Shown one piece after another: positions 5,641 to 47,480 of a stretch of DNA of 64,000 bases. The position numbers and the translations under genes were made by a program. Positions within the stretch are counted from its first letter, which is position 1. The number at the start of each line of letters is the position of its first letter. A model generated the notes under the pieces. That model was not told the DNA's origin and ran no database searches. It worked only from the letters and a program-made list of their open reading frames with translations. This stretch comes from Escherichia phage BP32, in sequence record OR906198.1; one strand, 5' to 3'.

Positions 5641-7445
5641 TATGCAATCCTTATCCAACGGTATACAGTAATAGACGGTTGAATATTACTAATATTAGCA
5701 GGAGGAGTATGTGAAGAGTTTGTTGTTGCGTAATCTTCACGGTATTTTGTATATATAGGACCAGTTTCATCTGGGTCATATTGGCAACCTCCAATAATAA
5801 CTGATCCGTTTTCGTCTTCAATTAAAACTCTTTCATCGGTTTTAGTCGCAGGAAGATTTGCGTTTTCAAGCGTTACTGATGTTGTTCCAACTGTTCCACC
5901 GGCAGTATGTGAAGGATTTCCGCTAGAATCTAAATCATTATTGTTTAAAGCAAAGTTTGGATCCGTAACATCATCATTCCATCCTACTAAAACTTGTCCT
6001 TTACCAAATAATTTCCATGAACCAAATCCCATATAAGTCACCGGATTATTTGGATTTATAGCATTTTCATAAATTGAACCAACAGGATAAATGCTGTCGA
6101 AAATAGATGATATTGAATTATACATTCTAGTATAAGAATCAACTTTTTCAACATTTGGCCAACCGATTTTATCAAAATCTGTTAAGGCTACATCACCAGT
6201 AACTTCGGTAGATGATCCTTTGCTAACATAACGGTCATCCGTTAATTCAATAATGTCATCTTTTTCTAAAAGAGTTCCTAAATCATTATTGAACCACGTT
6301 ATAACGATTATATCACCTGATTCAAATTTTCTATCAAATAAAAGACTGGTAGGTTTTCCATCTTCATATTCTATAGAATAATCTGTGTTTGATTCTTTCC
6401 ATTCACCACCAAGAGATATACAACCTTCTCGCGTATCTGAACTAGCGCCTTCACACAAAAACAGAGGATATCCAGCGGTTCCAGCCTGCTGCTGTAAAAT
6501 TCCATTAAAACGAACCTCAAGAGAATTAGGATTAATGGGTTCACCAGGAATTAATCCAAATGCAGAAAATGGAATTGATTTCATCGCCGATAAATCAGTA
6601 ACATAAATGCTTCCTTCTAAAGAAGTCTTTGATGTTAGTTTTGAATCTAGTACTTTTATTTGGCGTCTTGTATATGAACTTCTCCATTGTGATACACCAT
6701 CCATAAATGTTTCAATTTGAACGGTGTCACCAATATTACAAGGCTGTCTTAATCGAATATTAAATCCATCAAGAGGAACTAATTCGCCTTCATTTTCGCC
6801 CGGAGAGCCAAAGTCACTATTTTCGCTAAATACATCACCGTAATACAATTCGTTACCACGATGTTTTACTCTGATGTTATTGACATTATAACTAGTTCCA
6901 TTGAAAACATCTAAAAAGTCTGTTTGCCCTTGAACTTCGACTAAAAATTCTTTGCGAGCTACATTACTAATATCTGAACTAATAATTTTGTCAATTTGTT
7001 TATTTTTGACATATTCCCAACGTCCTGGAGCGCAATAAACGAGCTCTAAATCACTAAATTGAATATTAATTTCAACTGACGATGACGACCCTTTAATTGT
7101 ATCTCCGGAAGCAGCTACTAAAGTAACTGGATTGATGTTCCATGTAGCGAATACATCCCTGGCTCTAATTACCTTGTTGTAATCATTGACAGTTCCTTTA
7201 GGAAGTTGTAGAGTTACTCTTCCAGAAGAGGTATTAATAGCGTATGATTTTCCCCATTCTGCCGTTAGTGTTTGACCAGATGAAGCATCATAAGTTTTCC
7301 AGGCACCGGCTGAATATGGAACATCTCCATCACCAAGTTCATAATAAAGCTCATCAAAGTTTTCATTTATTTTTATACCACCTTTACGCAGGTAGTCACC
7401 GGTACCATCATCAACAACATTACCGATATTAATATTTTGTTTCAT
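5640..7445 (-). CDS. 10: gp10 baseplate wedge
   Basis: 601-aa ORF, T4 gp10 length and position. Confidence 0.9.
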
Positions 7446-23015: not shown

Positions 23016-23102
23016 GCGAGAATGGTCAAATTGGTAAAGGCACAGCACTTAAAATGCTGCGGAATGATTTCCTTGTGGGTTCGAGTCCCACTTCTCGCAC
23101 CA
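23016..23102 (+). tRNA. tRNA-Leu (anticodon UAA)
   Basis: 7-bp acceptor GCGAGAA/TTCTCGC, anticodon loop cuUAAaa, long variable arm, T-arm GGTTCGAGTCC, encoded CCA. Confidence 0.85.
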
Positions 23103-23107
23103 AATTT

Positions 23108-23181
<74 letters not shown>

Positions 23182-23191
23182 ATTTAATTTA

Positions 23192-23265
23192 CTCCGTGTA
23201 GCTCAGTTTGGTAGAGCGCCTGATTTGGGATCAGGAGGTCCAAGGTTCAAATCCTTGTATGGAGA
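23192..23265 (+). tRNA. tRNA-Pro (anticodon UGG), no encoded CCA
   Basis: anticodon loop uuUGGga, T-arm AAGGTTCAAATCCTT; 3' end lacks CCA; 2-nt spacer to tRNA-Ser. Confidence 0.8.
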
Positions 23266-23267
23266 CT

Positions 23268-23354
23268 GGAGGCGTGGCAGAGTGGTTTAATGCACCGGTC
23301 TTGAAAACCGGCAGTCGCTCCGGCGACTCATAGGTTCAAATCCTATCGCCTCCG
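23268..23354 (+). tRNA. tRNA-Ser (anticodon UGA), no encoded CCA
   Basis: acceptor GGAGGCG/CGCCTCC, anticodon loop cuUGAaa, long variable arm, no CCA. Confidence 0.8.
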
Positions 23355-23361
23355 TAATTTC

Positions 23362-23437
23362 GCTGATTTAGCTCAGTAGGTAGAGCAACTCACTTGTAAT
23401 GAGAAGGTCGGCGGTTCGATTCCGTCAATCAGCACCA
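23362..23437 (+). tRNA. tRNA-Thr (anticodon UGU)
   Basis: acceptor GCTGATT/AATCAGC, anticodon loop cuUGUaa, T-arm GGTTCGATTCC, encoded CCA. Confidence 0.85.
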
Positions 23438-23438
23438 A

Positions 23439-23515
23439 GGCCCTGTAGCTCAATGGTTAGCAGCAGTCCCCTCATAAGGGAAAGGTTACCAGTTCAAATC
23501 TGGTCTGGGTCACCA
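23439..23515 (+). tRNA. tRNA-Ile (anticodon CAU; Met alternative)
   Basis: anticodon loop cuCAUaa, T-arm CAGTTCAAATCTG, encoded CCA; one U-U mismatch in acceptor stem. Confidence 0.7.
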
Positions 23516-23524
23516 AATTAATTA

Positions 23525-23611
23525 GGGGAGTTATCCCGTAGAGGTAGCGGTGTGGACTGTAAATCCATTGTCATTGCGACTCGGGTGGTTCGACTCCACC
23601 ACTCCCCACCA
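23525..23611 (+). tRNA. tRNA-Tyr (anticodon GUA)
   Basis: acceptor GGGGAGT/ACTCCCC, anticodon loop ACTGTAAAT as in bacterial tRNA-Tyr, long variable arm, encoded CCA. Confidence 0.8.
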
Positions 23612-23657
23612 ATTTATGACTCGTCGTGAGACGCTCAGTTCTTTATTAGGGACTGAT

Positions 23658-24323
23658 ATGCATTTTTATCTTTATAAAATAACAAATAAAATTAATAATA
23701 AAATTTATATTGGTGTGCATTCTACCGAAAATTTAGATGATGGATATATGGGTTCTGGTAAATTATTAAAAAGAGCCCAAGATAAGTATGGTATAGAAAA
23801 TTTTTCTAAAGAAATATTAGAGTATTTTGATGATAAAGAATCTATGCTTGAAGCCGAGAAAAATATTGTCACAGAAGAGTTTTTAAATAGACCAGATGTG
23901 TATAATTTAAAACTTGGCGGTGAAGGTGGATGGGACCATATAAATATTCCTGGGATGCTAAACCAGAAGAAAGATGCTAGCTTAAAAGGAGCTAAATCGT
24001 TTAAATCACGTTTTGAAAATGATATTTTACTTCAAGAAAAATATCGTAAAATTGGTTCAAATGTATTTAAACGTTTGTGGTCAACTCCTGAATACAAGGA
24101 AAAATTTTTAAATAATAGCAGATTTTTAAATAAGCATCATACTCCTGAAACTATTAATAAAATGAAAGAAATTCACGCTAAAAATAATCATCAGAAAGGA
24201 GAAAAGAATTCCCAATTTGGTATGATGTGGATTCATTCATTAGATGAAAAAGTTTCTAAACGTATTAAGAAAACTGACCCAATTCCAGAAGGATGGTTTA
24301 AAGGTCGAAAAATGAAATTTTAA
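23658..24323 (+). CDS. segB: GIY-YIG homing endonuclease SegB
   Basis: 221 aa from ATG 23658 (ORF track start 23550 would overlap tRNA-Tyr); GIY-YIG motif YLYKITNKINNKIYIGVHS; embedded in tRNA cluster. Confidence 0.8.
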   Translation: MHFYLYKITNKINNKIYIGVHSTENLDDGYMGSGKLLKRAQDKYGIENFSKEILEYFDDKESMLEAEKNIVTEEFLNRPDVYNLKLGGEGGWDHINIPGMLNQKKDASLKGAKSFKSRFENDILLQEKYRKIGSNVFKRLWSTPEYKEKFLNNSRFLNKHHTPETINKMKEIHAKNNHQKGEKNSQFGMMWIHSLDEKVSKRIKKTDPIPEGWFKGRKMKF

Positions 24324-24326
24324 TTA

Positions 24327-24402
24327 CGGGGCATAGCTCAGAAGGAAGAGCAAGGACCTTCTAAGTCCTAGGTCGTAGGTTCGATCCCTACTGCCTCGAC
24401 CA
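24327..24402 (+). tRNA. tRNA-Arg (anticodon UCU)
   Basis: acceptor CGGGGCA/TGCCTCG, anticodon loop cuUCUaa, T-arm GTAGGTTCGATCCCTAC, encoded CCA. Confidence 0.85.
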
Positions 24403-24418
24403 ATTAAGTGAGGAAAAT

Positions 24419-24769
24419 ATGAAAGGTAATGTTTATTTAGTAGTTCATGATTTAACATTCTATTTTAATCACAATGATACTGTTATTTCTGAACGTGTAA
24501 TTAATTTACTTTATCAGCATGCAGATTATGTTTATGTCGAAAACGAATACGGTCATTGGCAATTTCTCAAAAATCGTTCATTTGGTTTAGATGGTTACGA
24601 ATATTTTGAACGTAAAGACCTTTTAGATAAAATTCCGTTATCTACACAATATCAAAATCATAAGTCTTTATATAAATGCCGTCCAATTCGAAATGCTGAA
24701 TCTGCGTATGAAGCAATTGATTTATGGCGTAAACGCCGTGAACAGATTGATGCATTAAAAGAATATTAA
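24419..24769 (+). CDS. hypothetical protein
   Basis: 116-aa ORF with GAGGAAAA RBS directly after tRNA-Arg. Confidence 0.6.
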   Translation: MKGNVYLVVHDLTFYFNHNDTVISERVINLLYQHADYVYVENEYGHWQFLKNRSFGLDGYEYFERKDLLDKIPLSTQYQNHKSLYKCRPIRNAESAYEAIDLWRKRREQIDALKEY

Positions 24770-25107
24770 GAAGCCGGGTCGCTACCGGTAAGTCGTCGGA
24801 CTGATGTTCCCTGGGTAAGGACTGGCATTAACAAATCTTTACGATCTGTTAATGTCCCCTTACATCACAGCAGAAACGGCGCACCGAATTATCGATTCGA
24901 GGAAATATCTTTGCCGTAAGCCGAGTAGCGTTTTTGACGGAACGTTCGGATATGGTCGAGATATGGCCTTTTAAAATATTGAGTAGCGTCAACTGCTTAA
25001 TAACCGGGTTCGAATCCCGGCGTTTCGTACAAACACTTGCCTTAGCAGGTGGAACCCCGACAAGGTTGCCGCAAGGCTTAGCCCCAGCCGAAAGGTTGGG
25101 GCTTTTT
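24770..25107 (+). ncRNA. structured non-coding region; candidate stable small RNA(s) (T4 rnaC/rnaD-like position)
   Basis: about 340 nt, GC-richer than surroundings, no credible ORF; tRNA-like T-arm CCGGGTTCGAATCCCGG at 25004-25020; ends in GNRA-loop terminator. Confidence 0.35.
25081..25107 (+). terminator. intrinsic terminator
   Basis: GCCCCAGCC-GAAA-GGTTGGGGC stem-loop followed by TTTTT. Confidence 0.6.
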
Positions 25108-37886: not shown

Positions 37887-38441
37887 GTGAGTGAGTCGAA
37901 GAGAATCAATATGAAACGATTAGTATTAGAAGTTAGTCCGCTTTTTGGTGAATTGGCTATAGAAAAAGTAAATAACATGTATCGTTTGACGCAAGAAGAC
38001 GATATGCTATATTTTACGCCTAGTGAAATCATTCATTTAACCCAAATTGAATATCCTTATACCGATAAAATAGTAAGCATCAATGATGAGCATAAAATTC
38101 ATTTTTGTTCTTTATGCTCGGGATTTAGTATTAAAAGTGAGTCAATATGCTTATCAATTGATAATTGGGATAATTTTATAACTAAGATTAAATATTTTTA
38201 TTATTCTAATGAAAGGAAACATAGTTTAAAATGGTTTAAAAAATGTAATGCTATTATTACTAACACTTGCAATCAGAACGGTGAAACTATTTTAAACGTA
38301 TCAAAATGTTATGAAGATGGAGATGTCTTAACTATTCGTCAATCGGTAAATGATGTTAATGTTGTTGTATTAAACAAAGAAGAAGCTGTTTTATTAAAGA
38401 CTTATCTTGATTCTGTCATTCCAACTATGATTTCAAAGTGA
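37887..38441 (+). CDS. hypothetical protein, paralog of 38448 product
   Basis: 184 aa (GTG start 9 nt after AAAGGAG; alternative ATG 37911); C-terminal region aligns with the next ORF. Confidence 0.6.
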   Translation: MSESKRINMKRLVLEVSPLFGELAIEKVNNMYRLTQEDDMLYFTPSEIIHLTQIEYPYTDKIVSINDEHKIHFCSLCSGFSIKSESICLSIDNWDNFITKIKYFYYSNERKHSLKWFKKCNAIITNTCNQNGETILNVSKCYEDGDVLTIRQSVNDVNVVVLNKEEAVLLKTYLDSVIPTMISK

Positions 38442-38447
38442 GGAAAT

Positions 38448-38969
38448 ATGTTTATTTCAAGTGGAAGTGGTTTAATTCGTGTTGAATTTAAAAATGACAT
38501 CTTCCTTATTCAAGGAGATGATATTATTAAAATGAGTTATGACGAAATCAAGAAAATTTGTCACGCTCTTGAAAGTCATGGAAAGGAAAATGCTACTATC
38601 GATATAGGTGATTTATGGGTAACGCTTTATGAAGTATCCGAAGGATTTAACATTGAAGATGAAAATAACATTTTAGCTATTGATAAAAGGACCGATTTGT
38701 TTGATGTGTTAAAAGTTTATGAACAGTCAAACGGTGGAAGAAAAGCCGTATTGATTTATCAAAAACCGCATTCATGTGGAACTGCTTCAATCATTTCAAA
38801 TATTGAAGATGAAACTGATACCTATATGTGTGTTTTGAAAGCTGGTGGTGACCGTCATCCGGATTTTATTTCTATTCGTCAAAACAATGGAGAAATTTCA
38901 TTATCAAAATCAGAAGCTGAAGCTATGATTAAGTATTTAACAACTGTTACACCTTCAATGAAAGGATAA
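38448..38969 (+). CDS. hypothetical protein, paralog of 37887 product
   Basis: 173 aa behind GAGGAAAT RBS; shares C-terminal pattern with upstream ORF. Confidence 0.65.
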   Translation: MFISSGSGLIRVEFKNDIFLIQGDDIIKMSYDEIKKICHALESHGKENATIDIGDLWVTLYEVSEGFNIEDENNILAIDKRTDLFDVLKVYEQSNGGRKAVLIYQKPHSCGTASIISNIEDETDTYMCVLKAGGDRHPDFISIRQNNGEISLSKSEAEAMIKYLTTVTPSMKG

Positions 38970-38971
38970 TT

Positions 38972-39418
38972 ATGATTATTAATGAAAACTCTTGGCACGT
39001 TCGTATGCATGATTTCTTTTACTGGCAGCGTCCGAATTCTTTGTGTAAATATTTCTGGAAAATGGCGTGGACGTTCTTAGTTATCGGTGTTATTTGCACA
39101 TCGGGGCTATTAGGTAGTTGGGTGGTAGGACAAGCTATTTTAAGTCAATTTGGTGTTACAGGATTCTGGCTTCTACATGCAGGCGGAACCGTATTTGGTG
39201 TACTGATATTTGCTACGATTGTCATTATTGCAGTAGGTATAGCATATATTGTAGCTAAGATTTCAGGTTTATGGGAAGGAGTCAGGTATGATAGAGCGTG
39301 GAAGCGTCAACAAGACGAAGAAAACGGTATTGAACATCCTAAGAGTGTAATCGTTGAATACCTTAAAGCTAGTAAATCTAAAATCTGCCCTATGATAGAA
39401 TTTAAGGATGTTAAATGA
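38972..39418 (+). CDS. small membrane protein
   Basis: 148 aa with 2-3 predicted TM helices; ATGA-coupled to next gene. Confidence 0.65.
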   Translation: MIINENSWHVRMHDFFYWQRPNSLCKYFWKMAWTFLVIGVICTSGLLGSWVVGQAILSQFGVTGFWLLHAGGTVFGVLIFATIVIIAVGIAYIVAKISGLWEGVRYDRAWKRQQDEENGIEHPKSVIVEYLKASKSKICPMIEFKDVK

Positions 39419-40425
39419 AAACAGTAATGAAAAGCTATTTTGGTAGTCATCTTTATGGAACTTCTACTCCAGAATCTGATGTAGATTTCAAAGAAATCTT
39501 TGTTCCTCCTGCTCGCGACATTCTTATCGGAAATGTTAAAGAGCATATGAGTAAAAACACTAACAACACATCATCTAAAAACACTAAAGATGATATTGAC
39601 CATGAACTATACAGTCTTAAGTATTTCTTTAAATTAGCAGCAGATGGTGAAACTGTAGCATTGGATATGCTCCATACTCCACCTGAACTGGTAGTTAAAT
39701 CTGATTTGCCTGATGTATGGAAGTTTATTCAAGACAATCGTTCTCGTTTTTATACGACTAACATGAAATCCTATTTAGGATATGTCCGCAAGCAAGCTTC
39801 TAAATACGGTGTCAAGGGTTCTCGTTTGGCTGCATTGCGTGATGTATTGAAAGTAGTTAATCAAATCCCTGATCAGTGGGTTGATTATCAAGAAGACGGT
39901 TCCATTAAGCAACGTCGTACTAAAGTTGAAGATATTAAGCATCGTCTTCCAGAGAACGAGTTCTGTGAATGGGTGTTCCATAATCACGAGAAAACAGGCC
40001 CGCAAACGTTCTATACTGTGTTGGGTCGTAAATATCAGACAACGCTTTCTCTTATTGAGCTTAAGCAGTCACTGAACAAATTAGATGCTGAATACGGCGA
40101 ACGTGCTCGTAAGGCTGAAGCGAATGAGGGCATTGACTGGAAAGCTCTTAGTCATGCTTGCCGTGGTGGACTCCAACTATTGGAAATTTACAAAACTGGT
40201 GATTTGGTTTATCCACTCCAAGATGCTCCATTTATTCTCGACGTGAAGTTGGGTAAACATCCATTTAAAACTGTTCAAGAGTTTTTGGAAGATGTGGTCG
40301 ATCAAGTAGAAGCAGCATCCATTGAAGCTTCTAAGAACGGTATGCAGCAAAAAGTAGACATGAGTTTCTGGGATGACTTCCTTGAGAGGGTTTATCTTGA
40401 AAACCACCGAAGTTATTATAAATGA
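39415..40425 (+). CDS. predicted nucleotidyltransferase-fold protein (Pol-beta superfamily)
   Basis: 336 aa; N-terminal G-S-x9-S-D-V-D (FGSHLYGTSTPESDVDF) fits hG[GS]x9-13Dh[DE]h; candidate third acidic residue in VALDML. Confidence 0.6.
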   Translation: MKTVMKSYFGSHLYGTSTPESDVDFKEIFVPPARDILIGNVKEHMSKNTNNTSSKNTKDDIDHELYSLKYFFKLAADGETVALDMLHTPPELVVKSDLPDVWKFIQDNRSRFYTTNMKSYLGYVRKQASKYGVKGSRLAALRDVLKVVNQIPDQWVDYQEDGSIKQRRTKVEDIKHRLPENEFCEWVFHNHEKTGPQTFYTVLGRKYQTTLSLIELKQSLNKLDAEYGERARKAEANEGIDWKALSHACRGGLQLLEIYKTGDLVYPLQDAPFILDVKLGKHPFKTVQEFLEDVVDQVEAASIEASKNGMQQKVDMSFWDDFLERVYLENHRSYYK

Positions 40426-40428
40426 TAA

Positions 40429-40452
40429 GGGAGCCTTCGGGCTCCCTTTTTT
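40429..40452 (+). terminator. intrinsic terminator
   Basis: GGGAGCC-TTCG-GGCTCCC stem-loop followed by TTTTTT. Confidence 0.7.
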
Positions 40453-40477
40453 ATTTCAAAAATTTTTCATAAAACTG

Positions 40478-40506
40478 TTTACAAGCATAAAGCTTTATGG
40501 TACTAT
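40478..40506 (+). promoter_or_regulatory. T4-type early promoter
   Basis: -35 TTTACA, 17-bp spacer, -10 TACTAT; conserved GGTACTATACAACTATCAACT leader. Confidence 0.7.
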
Positions 40507-40540
40507 ACAACTATCAACTGATACGGATTTGGAGAATAAA

Positions 40541-41509
40541 ATGAAAACTGTAACTATCAATAAAGGTATCTACTTCGGTAAAGAAATCTCTGGAACTTTT
40601 GAGCTCTTAGGCGAATGGTTCCCAGATAATGCTCCGGTAGATGCACAAGGAGATGGTAAAGTTTTTGTTGAAATTGACGGTAAACGTCGCGGTGTTTGGG
40701 TTTACAAATCAGATATTTCATATGATGGTGTAAAAGTTGAAGAAGTTAAAGAATCATATGAAGATATGAAAACCCGCATTAATAAAAGATTTAATGTTAT
40801 GGGAATGATGACGAATGGTATTATTAATGGAAATATTCGTTCATTAATTATCTCTGGCGCAGCAGGTATTGGTAAAACGTATTCTTTAGATAAAGCTTTA
40901 AATAAAGCAAATGATATTGGATACATTGAATATAAAAGCATTAATGGTAAAATCTCTGGTATTGGTCTTTATGAGCAGCTTTGGAATAATCGTGAAGAGA
41001 ACTCTGTCCTTTTGATTGATGATGTGGATGTTTTCTCTGATATGGACATTCTTAATCTTCTGAAAGCTGCTCTGGACACTGGAGAGACCCGTAAAGTCTG
41101 CTGGAGCACTGCATCTTCTTACTTAGAAGAAAAAGGCATTGACCGTGAGTTTGAATTTAAAGGAACGATTGTTTTTATCACAAACGTTGATATTGACCGC
41201 GAATTAGACCGTGGTACTAAACTTGCCCCACACTTACAAGCATTAGTGTCCCGCTCAGTTTATTTAGATTTGGGTGTTCACACTAATGAAGAAATTATGG
41301 TCAGGGTTGAAGATGTTATTCTTTCAACCGACATGATGCAAAAGCGCGGTCTTTCTGATGAAGAAACTTATAAAGCATTATCATGGATGAAAGTTAATGT
41401 TAATCGTTTACGCAATGTTTCACTGCGTACTGCTCTTTATCTTGCTGACTTTATTATGACCGACAAAAACGGTTGGGAAGAAATTGCTGAGGTTACTCTT
41501 CTGAAATAA
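40541..41509 (+). CDS. P-loop ATPase (AAA-like)
   Basis: 322 aa from ATG 40541 behind GGAGAAT RBS; Walker A ISGAAGIGKTYS, Walker B VLLIDDVD, sensor-1-like FITN. Confidence 0.7.
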   Translation: MKTVTINKGIYFGKEISGTFELLGEWFPDNAPVDAQGDGKVFVEIDGKRRGVWVYKSDISYDGVKVEEVKESYEDMKTRINKRFNVMGMMTNGIINGNIRSLIISGAAGIGKTYSLDKALNKANDIGYIEYKSINGKISGIGLYEQLWNNREENSVLLIDDVDVFSDMDILNLLKAALDTGETRKVCWSTASSYLEEKGIDREFEFKGTIVFITNVDIDRELDRGTKLAPHLQALVSRSVYLDLGVHTNEEIMVRVEDVILSTDMMQKRGLSDEETYKALSWMKVNVNRLRNVSLRTALYLADFIMTDKNGWEEIAEVTLLK

Positions 41510-41610
41510 TTCATAAGAGGACTTCTATGACAAAAAGGCAGTTCAGAAATAGATTATATGGACTGCCATTAAAAAGATGACTAGAATTAAACTGGTGAAT
41601 GGAGGTAGTG

Positions 41611-41916: not shown

Positions 41917-41945
41917 TTTACAAGACTGTTCCTCTGTGGTACTAT
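41917..41945 (+). promoter_or_regulatory. T4-type early promoter
   Basis: -35 TTTACA, 17-bp spacer, -10 TACTAT; same conserved leader. Confidence 0.7.
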
Positions 41946-46937: not shown

Positions 46938-47251
46938 AAAAGCGTCTATTAGAAGATATTGCAGCTTCAAGTAATTCCAGTCTAATTAAAATTATTATGG
47001 CTGGTGAAGAAGACGATTTAGAAATGCGTGGAAAGATTCATGGTTGTGACGATCTAGACTTTAAACCTCCTGCTTGGGATGCCATTATGGCTATGGTTGA
47101 ACGCCGCGAAAGGGCTTCTAAGAATGTTCCGAACTGCCCAAAATGTGGTACTAAACAGGTCCAATTGGTCAATTGGCATAAACCAGAACTTGAATATAAA
47201 TGTCGTCATTGCAAACACCGATTTAACCGAGAAGAAAATGCCCAAGCGTAA
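46934..47251 (+). CDS. zinc-ribbon protein
   Basis: 105 aa; CPKCG...CRHCKH four-Cys motif; ATGA-coupled. Confidence 0.6.
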
Positions 47252-47480
47252 AGAATATATGGAGATTGCTGAAAAAGCAGTCCGTGAATTAGCAATAGCT
47301 TATTATAATGAACACGGTAAATTTCCTGATAGATATAGCGTTCTTAAATCTGCTTTAACTCGTTCATATAAAAATATGCTATCAGAAGTAAGTGATATTA
47401 TATACAAACATAAAGAACAAACGGGCCAAAGTCTTGATTATGACGAGACTTTTAAACAAGTACTAGGAATTAAGGAATAA
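47238..47480 (+). CDS. hypothetical small protein
   Basis: 80 aa from ATG 47238 behind GAGAAGAAA RBS (ORF track 47079). Confidence 0.45.

Follow-up and report, generated by a model that had tools for sequence, protein, structure and literature searches.

The stretch of DNA analyzed here, called the window below, comprises 64,000 nucleotides of Escherichia phage BP32 (OR906198.1), and this report concerns a pair of neighboring early genes in it, one encoding a protein of the nucleotidyltransferase (NTase) fold and the other an AAA+ ATPase (Table 1). The 2.3-kb region that holds the pair is 96-98% identical in DNA sequence to dozens of T4-like phages of Escherichia, Shigella and Yersinia. It is colinear with T4 coordinates 56446-48127, with T4 on the opposite strand, and the source of the window is, judged by these sequences, a Tequatrovirus. 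The product of the first gene, whose N-terminus reads MKTVMKSYFGSHLYGTSTPESDVDF, shares 98.5% protein identity with T4 NrdC.11 (NP_049709), and the product of the second shares 99% with T4 NrdC.10 (NP_049708), making both orthologues of T4 proteins. An earlier note on this DNA had recognized neither as a characterized T4 protein and had proposed the pair as a candidate for an undescribed system. Neither point survived, as both are catalogued T4 genes, RefSeq annotates T4 NrdC.11 as a "nucleotidyltransferase", and the protein is named in a 2025 preprint on the RlaP family. Domain matches of nrdC.11 to NTases and of nrdC.10 to AAA proteins had been published as early as 2006 (PMC1524935).

The physical description given in the earlier note was accurate: both open reading frames (ORFs), the intergenic terminator, the early promoter and the ATPase motifs GAAGIGKT (residues 106-113), LLIDDVD (157-163) and FITN (212-215) were all present at the expected places. 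The mechanical ORF list runs the ATPase frame upstream to 40373, and the true start codon, with a GGAG ahead of it at 40531-40534, is the ATG at 40541. The terminator hairpin is also annotated in the GenBank relatives MT682709 and OL960581, and the latter carries a T4 early-promoter-like annotation for the promoter element. nrdC.10 is thus predicted to be transcribed alone from its own early promoter, the terminator closing the NTase unit. The NTase gene would be the last one of the upstream transcription unit because the stop codon of the preceding 148-aa ORF (TGA) overlaps its ATG (AATGA). This phage and T4 are alike in the order of nrdC.11 and nrdC.10, in the intergenic terminator and promoter, and in the flanking nrdC.9 and mobD.1. 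The sole meaningful difference is that mobD, found immediately upstream of nrdC.11 in T4, is replaced here by two other ORFs.

Table 1. Features of the nrdC.11/nrdC.10 locus in the window and, in the last three lines, gene orders at cellular loci encoding NrdC.11 homologues
Feature	Position	Strand	Remarks
nrdC.11 orthologue, RlaP-family (PF10127) Pol-beta nucleotidyltransferase (predicted), 336 aa	39415-40425	+	
nrdC.10 orthologue, AAA+ ATPase (predicted), 322 aa	40541-41509	+	
Intrinsic terminator, AAGGGAGCC-TTCG-GGCTCCCTT then T6	40427-40448	+	9-bp stem, 6 GC
T4-type early promoter, GTTTAC-N14-atggTActaT, ahead of the ATPase gene	40477-40506	+	fits T4 early-promoter consensus
Upstream 148-aa predicted membrane-protein ORF	38972-39418	+	context, no conserved partner
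L189, uncultured Nitrosospira contig CAADGK010000054	1555-13378 (12 kb)		Ro60-RtcB-NTase-Hen1-Pnkp
L242	1975-8824		Hen1-Pnkp-NTase-ligase
L197 and L211			Hen1-Pnkp-NTase

The first gene had been credited with a Pol-beta superfamily signature consisting of G-S, nine residues and D-x-D. The G-S and D-x-D elements are indeed there and are conserved, but S11 and D22 are separated by 10 residues, not nine. NrdC.11 matches the Pfam family PF10127 (RlaP) with 43.9 bits (gathering cut-off 23, E=3e-11). The full name of this family is "RNA repair pathway DNA polymerase beta family". An exhaustive HMMER search returned 3,421 cluster representatives, and of 137 diverse homologues taken from these, 136 matched PF10127 individually (best E=2e-19). 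PHROG 388, to which NrdC.11 is assigned, is annotated as nucleotidyltransferase. When the 137 homologues (34-54% identity) were aligned, G10 and S11 proved invariant and D22, D24, D60, D62 and D84 were each conserved in at least 90%, and a second conserved block was found in the C-terminal half (D241-W-K, H247, R250 and K278). Since the RlaP score lies above the gathering threshold and the catalytic residues are conserved among the homologues, the presence of the motif is not a matter of chance, and profile and residues together identify NrdC.11 as an RlaP-family NTase. Its AlphaFold2 model is confident (predicted local distance difference test score, pLDDT, 95.1) and shows an NTase core (~1-112), helices (118-149), a beta insertion (154-208) and a helical C-terminal domain (213-335) that ends in the helix 316-335. 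D60 and D62 lie on the predicted strand 61-67.

RlaP denotes a family of RNA-ligase-associated NTases, which in jumbo phages follow the RNA ligases in their distribution (Iyer et al. 2021, PMC7824862, citing earlier work). The same article relays a prediction of Burroughs and Aravind that phage RlaPs refill nucleotides excised by RloC-type nucleases ahead of ligation; RloC excises the wobble nucleotide (PMC2610378, PMC3458546). Two Pseudomonas members, PfRlaP and PaRlaP, were recently assayed (Carruthers et al. 2025 preprint, bioRxiv 10.64898/2025.12.29.696909). They add 1-2 nucleoside monophosphates (NMPs) to RNA 3'-OH ends with a preference for Mn2+ and with little base specificity, and are inactive on DNA and protein. 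According to the same preprint, RlaP favours the 5' half of a nicked tRNA over the 3' half bearing the acceptor end, RlaPs partly restore the aminoacylation of a tRNA short of one anticodon-loop nucleotide, and E. coli RNAs of rRNA, tRNA and fragment size became labelled by RlaP in vitro. In the PfRlaP crystal structure an N-terminal NTase domain is followed by a helical C-terminal one, and the last helix of the latter folds back against the NTase domain. The preprint places "T4NrdC.11", with function unknown, in cluster 5 of its sequence-similarity network, whereas PfRlaP and PaRlaP fall in cluster 1a.

RlaP had been listed in the earlier note beside the CD-NTase, MNT and aminoglycoside NTase families, and it alone was retained. 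NrdC.11 matches no model of CD-NTase or CBASS-type enzymes, and PADLOC returned zero matches for both NrdC.11 and NrdC.10. An MntA antitoxin of the HEPN/MNT kind was rejected on a score of 13.2 bits for NF047752 (cut-off 60) and on the neighbors, which are a membrane-protein ORF and the AAA+ gene with no HEPN. Foldseek, which the note had recommended, did return NTase-type matches for the NrdC.11 model in the PDB, but weak ones (template modelling scores 0.25-0.33). Aminoglycoside NTases turn up as distant fold matches only; the kanamycin nucleotidyltransferase ANT(4') and the NTase-like protein 3c18 have in common with NrdC.11 an NTase domain followed by a helical bundle. PDB sequence searches with NrdC.11, NrdC.10 and both family profiles gave no meaningful match.

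Of the roles suggested in the earlier note, RNA repair is the one that the evidence favours, and synthesis of a nucleotide signal and modification of protein are disfavoured. NrdC.11 could make a free nucleotide or oligonucleotide signal or decoy, like CD-NTases or like HalB, whose product oligo-dA keeps a Hailong-type channel closed. HalB (PDB 9dbh) shares 15% identity with NrdC.11 and no profile-level sequence match. Its product is free oligo-dA, and it acts together with the HalA channel (PMC13276650); no HalA-like partner lies beside NrdC.11, so that the pairing of a HalB-type NTase with a HalA channel is missing and we rejected this identity. A signal-making role is in our judgment very unlikely. 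Nucleotidylylation of a protein or small molecule, be it AMPylation of the MntA/DrrA type or aminoglycoside/lincosamide modification, seems extremely unlikely, as the matches fall below the family thresholds, the RlaP enzymes left proteins unlabelled, there is no gene for a HEPN toxin partner, and the sequence family is RlaP.

A second line of evidence came from the genomic neighborhoods of homologues. A scan of 100,044 species genomes with the C-terminal motif of the NrdC.11 clade yielded 78 cellular loci, most of them encoding full-length NrdC.11-type homologues with 24-43% identity. At 13 of these, RNA-repair genes (Pnkp, Hen1, RtcB, RNA ligase or Ro60) were found within 6 kb, all confirmed by Pfam, with PNKP_ligase at E=1e-161, Hen1_L at E=1e-92 and RtcB at E=1e-68; the others are Rnl-type RNA ligase and Ro60/TROVE. 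The repair genes directly abut the NTase gene in several cases (Table 1). At the Nitrosospira locus the tblastn match to the NTase is 1380 bp long (6001-7380), compared with ~950 bp elsewhere. Among phages, the NrdC.11 homologue of Sinorhizobium phage phiM7 is flanked by two RNA-ligase genes. A phiM7 ligase was uninformative as a probe for comparing the phage distributions of ligase and NrdC.11, being too distant from T4 Rnl2. The NrdC.11-type clade itself, beyond the assayed Pseudomonas clade, thus occurs in operons with Pnkp/Hen1, RtcB, ligase and Ro60, and this is new.

The earlier note had further suggested that the NTase and the ATPase work together as an anti-defence module. By tblastn, 1,565 phage records contain the NTase and 1,312 contain the ATPase, with genus counts that diverge in Klebsiella (286 vs 149) and Vibrio (59 vs 121). 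The ATPase gene lies within 10 kb of the NTase gene in 38 of 78 sampled NTase-centred viral loci, always downstream, on the same strand and at a gap of 112-2290 bp, and not in the other 40. Reciprocally, the NTase gene lies within that distance in 39 of 79 ATPase-centred loci and not in the other 40, and no NTase was found within 10 kb of any ATPase homologue of 60% identity or less. Adjacency was seen only in T4-like phages of enterobacteria and Acinetobacter. In T4-like phages of Vibrio and Aeromonas (KVP40 and several Aeromonas-type genomes) the two genes co-exist at a distance of 40-110 kb, and Mosigvirus-like genomes keep the NTase (82% identity) with ~0.9 kb of small ORFs at the ATPase position. 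The ATPase is missing from every one of the 78 cellular NTase loci. Because the genes are elsewhere unlinked or singly present, or the ATPase is replaced, the adjacency is inherited synteny within one T4-like clade and not a conserved functional linkage; co-transcription and co-occurrence beyond ancestry, which would mark a two-gene operon or system, were not found.

The pair could still form a two-component early anti-defence module. The constant order and strand would agree with it, as would the spread of the arrangement over Tequatrovirus, Mosigvirus and Klebsiella-, Enterobacter- and Acinetobacter-type T4-like phages down to ~51% NTase identity, and the surrounding island holds anti-defence genes such as nrdC.1, which inhibits Septu (HIDEN-SEQ paper). 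T4-like genomes are, however, broadly syntenic, so that adjacency weighs little. A terminator and a separate promoter stand between the genes, each gene is found without the other in further phage families, the ATPase has been lost from close relatives in which the NTase persists, and at the cellular loci the recurring neighbors are RNA-repair enzymes instead. We regard the module as very improbable. NrdC.10 might alternatively be a clade-specific AAA+ accessory of RNA repair in those T4-like phages, of enterobacteria and Acinetobacter, in which the pair is always adjacent. It might then, for instance, assist NrdC.11 by unfolding or delivering the cleaved tRNA or by pulling the anticodon nuclease off its substrate, and the pair would be a previously unrecognized ATP-driven extension of phage tRNA repair. 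This, too, appears decidedly improbable.

NrdC.10 has the features of a genuine AAA+ ATPase. In 70 homologues (55-89% identity) the Walker A residues G106...K112-T113, the Walker B residues D160-D161 and the sensor 1 residue N215 are intact, and S237-R238-S239 and the lid arginines R291 and R296 are also kept. In the AlphaFold2 model (pLDDT 90.7) residues 1-61 form an N-terminal beta domain, the AAA+ core runs from residue 73, and an insertion at 179-208 comes ahead of sensor 1. Sequence and profile searches of Pfam, NCBIfam and PDB with NrdC.10 gave nothing significant: the NCBIfam model Hda scored 14.6 bits (cut-off 195), and Cdc6 was matched at E 0.16. An hhalign comparison with the gp44 of this phage, not significant at E=0.09, brought the Walker A, Walker B, sensor 1 and S-R-S/S-R-C motifs into line with one another. 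Some GenBank records label NrdC.10 as a clamp loader, and the phage encodes its own gp44/62 clamp loader besides. NrdC.10 has no significant sequence match to the clamp-loader/initiator and MoxR-type AAA+ proteins (gp44, RFC, Hda/DnaA, Cdc6; NorQ/CbbQ) and differs from them in its N-terminal beta domain and in the 30-residue insertion before sensor 1. Its family is PHROG 1250 ("unknown function"), and RefSeq annotates T4 nrdC.10 as hypothetical. On its motifs it is an orphan AAA+ family, predicted to be catalytically intact.

The distant homologues of NrdC.10 adjoin nrdA/nrdB, a UvsW-like helicase, topoisomerase gp52, an RFC-like protein, dut or DNA polymerase. In an Ackermannviridae Vibrio phage the ATPase gene stands beside an RFC-like gene, regA and dut, its neighbors in Roseobacter siphophage RDJL6 are genes for an exonuclease and a DNA polymerase, and there is no NTase nearby in either. 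A group of marine T4-like contigs (L135-L163) encodes the ATPase (32-35% identity) at a fixed position with no NTase nearby; nrdA/nrdB lie upstream of it, and a UvsW-like helicase and a ~190-aa protein lie downstream (24-28 of 29 loci). This conservation in the marine contigs suggests that the NrdC.10-type ATPase is old and stands close to the core gene set of T4-like phages. Since its NTase-less occurrences sit among genes of DNA replication and nucleotide metabolism, our best guess, held with low confidence, is an accessory role in DNA metabolism. NrdC.10 is a widely conserved phage AAA+ ATPase and should be kept out of a repair model for its neighbor.

Taken together, we favour, with moderate confidence, a reading of the locus as two independent early genes, in which NrdC.11 would be an RlaP NTase extending broken RNA ends in tRNA repair and NrdC.10 would not be a dedicated partner. 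NrdC.11 resembles the RlaPs in its above-threshold Pfam match, its catalytic acids, the modelled layout of an NTase domain followed by a C-terminal helical domain, and the RNA-repair operons in which its full-length homologues occur. Its substrate and biological role in T4-like phages are inferred. The most likely activity, judged by the characterized bacterial RlaPs, would be template-independent addition of 1-2 NMPs to the 3'-OH of broken RNA, and the in vivo target is probably the 5' half of a tRNA that was cut and then trimmed by an RloC-type host anticodon nuclease. The host nuclease would cleave and trim the tRNA anticodon loop, healing by the phage Pnk would leave a 3'-OH and a 5'-phosphate, NrdC.11 would put the missing nucleotide on the 3'-OH of the tRNA 5' half, and either Rnl1 or Rnl2, acting as a 5'-phosphate RNA ligase, would join the halves. 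With its Pnk/Rnl1 pathway T4 provides the textbook example of a virus mending tRNA damage inflicted by its host, and RloC-type nucleases have reportedly been proposed to defeat this repair by excising a nucleotide. If NrdC.11 refills the gap, it would provide a third repair step in T4-like phages, an add-on to the classical T4 tRNA-repair counter-defence, and this would explain why the non-essential nrdC.11 persists in about 1,500 sequenced phages. The idea of refilling is itself already published (Burroughs and Aravind via PMC7824862; Carruthers et al. 2025).

Several points weigh against this model. The enzymes assayed were PfRlaP and PaRlaP, not NrdC.11, and the low base specificity of RlaP implies that only a small fraction of repairs would be correct. 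The PF10127 match is confined to residues 6-134 of NrdC.11 (profile positions 23-142 of 249), so that the N-terminal half alone of this ~336-aa protein aligns to Pfam, and the phage clade carries a beta insertion of ~55 residues (154-208) that goes unmentioned in the description of the PfRlaP structure. The repair neighbors are limited to the 13 of 78 cellular loci. In the T4-like loci no ligase or kinase gene was found within 5 kb of the NTase gene, and clustering of the neighbors there gave syntenic genes alone (rI.-1-like, tk, tk.4 macro domain and membrane proteins). T4 pnk, rnlA and rnlB are located elsewhere in the T4 genome. As to the second gene, the sole basis for a separate role of NrdC.10 in DNA metabolism is its gene neighborhood in syntenic phage genomes.

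The genetic record in T4 also bears on the question. T4 is viable with nrdC.11-mobD.3 deleted (PMC9825161), and in the HIDEN-SEQ transposon study of T4 on K-12 both genes were non-essential, with 69 of 71 TA sites hit in nrdC.10 and 65 of 68 in nrdC.11. Neither gene changed in that study's comparison of the T4 reference with the ΔrnlA-host library, and its main text names neither among the conditional hits; the conditions were RexAB, RnlAB, CBASS, DarTG1/2, M9 medium, two clinical isolates and Mokosh I. With no phenotype in the K-12 data and the ΔrnlA comparison, and with a co-occurrence that is confined to synteny within one clade, the module fails the refuting condition that the earlier note had set for it. 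That nrdC.11 transposon mutants show no defect on K-12 and go unnamed in the main text as a conditional hit speaks against a repair role as well, but the panel contained no anticodon-nuclease host (RloC, PrrC), and the lack of a phenotype therefore has no bearing on the repair model.

NrdC.11 might also act on RNA 3' ends in another way, for example by mending the CCA ends of tRNAs that have been trimmed, including those of the phage's eight tRNAs, or by tailing transcripts of the host or the phage and so affecting their stability. The chemistry would be the same, an NMP added to an RNA 3'-OH, and the breadth of E. coli RNAs labelled by RlaP in vitro, the tRNA cluster in the window and the separation of the NTase from ligase genes in T4-like phages would all be compatible with it. 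The preference of RlaP for the 5' half of a nicked tRNA, away from the acceptor end, argues otherwise, RlaP is without the base specificity that CCA mending requires, and the ligase and end-healing neighbors in cellular genomes point to the sealing of internal breaks. T4 tRNAs with no encoded CCA rely on the host CCA-adding enzyme, which likewise counts against CCA mending. We consider such a role unlikely.

Some further observations concern the surroundings of the pair. In place of T4 mobD, a homing-endonuclease gene, 38448-39418 holds ~950 bp with a 173-aa ORF and the 148-aa predicted membrane protein. The 173-aa ORF and the adjacent 184-aa mobD.1-like ORF (37887-38441) are similar at their C-termini. 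The nrdD intron with I-TevII, and mobC, are apparently missing relative to T4 (jumps in colinearity at ~50086 and ~51385). The orthologue of T4 nrdC.1 lies at 47238-47480 (+). Past nrdC.10, at 41530-41575, the sequence forms only a stem of 6 bp (GGCAGT/ACTGCC) that closes a 19-nt loop and lacks a T-run, which the terminator scan did not call; the GenBank record of a relative annotates a terminator after nrdC.10, and termination after the ATPase gene in this phage is doubtful. The tRNA cluster spans 23016-25030, with eight tRNAs confirmed by Rfam: Leu, Gly, Pro, Ser, Thr, Met/Ile-CAU, a marginal Tyr-GUA (30.3 bits) and Arg. A 94-nt tRNA-Lys(UUU) at 24937-25030 is called by ARAGORN alone and is not supported by Rfam; a phage tRNA-Lys, if real, would matter for PrrC-, RloC- or PARIS-type defences. 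Near-identical early-promoter/leader cassettes were found before nrdC.10 (40478-40506) and before nrdC.8 (41917-41945), each made up of TTTACA-17-TACTAT, a TG upstream of it and, after it, a conserved leader translating as ...GTIQLST.... The repetition suggests a promoter module that would give nrdC.10 and nrdC.8 early promoters of their own.

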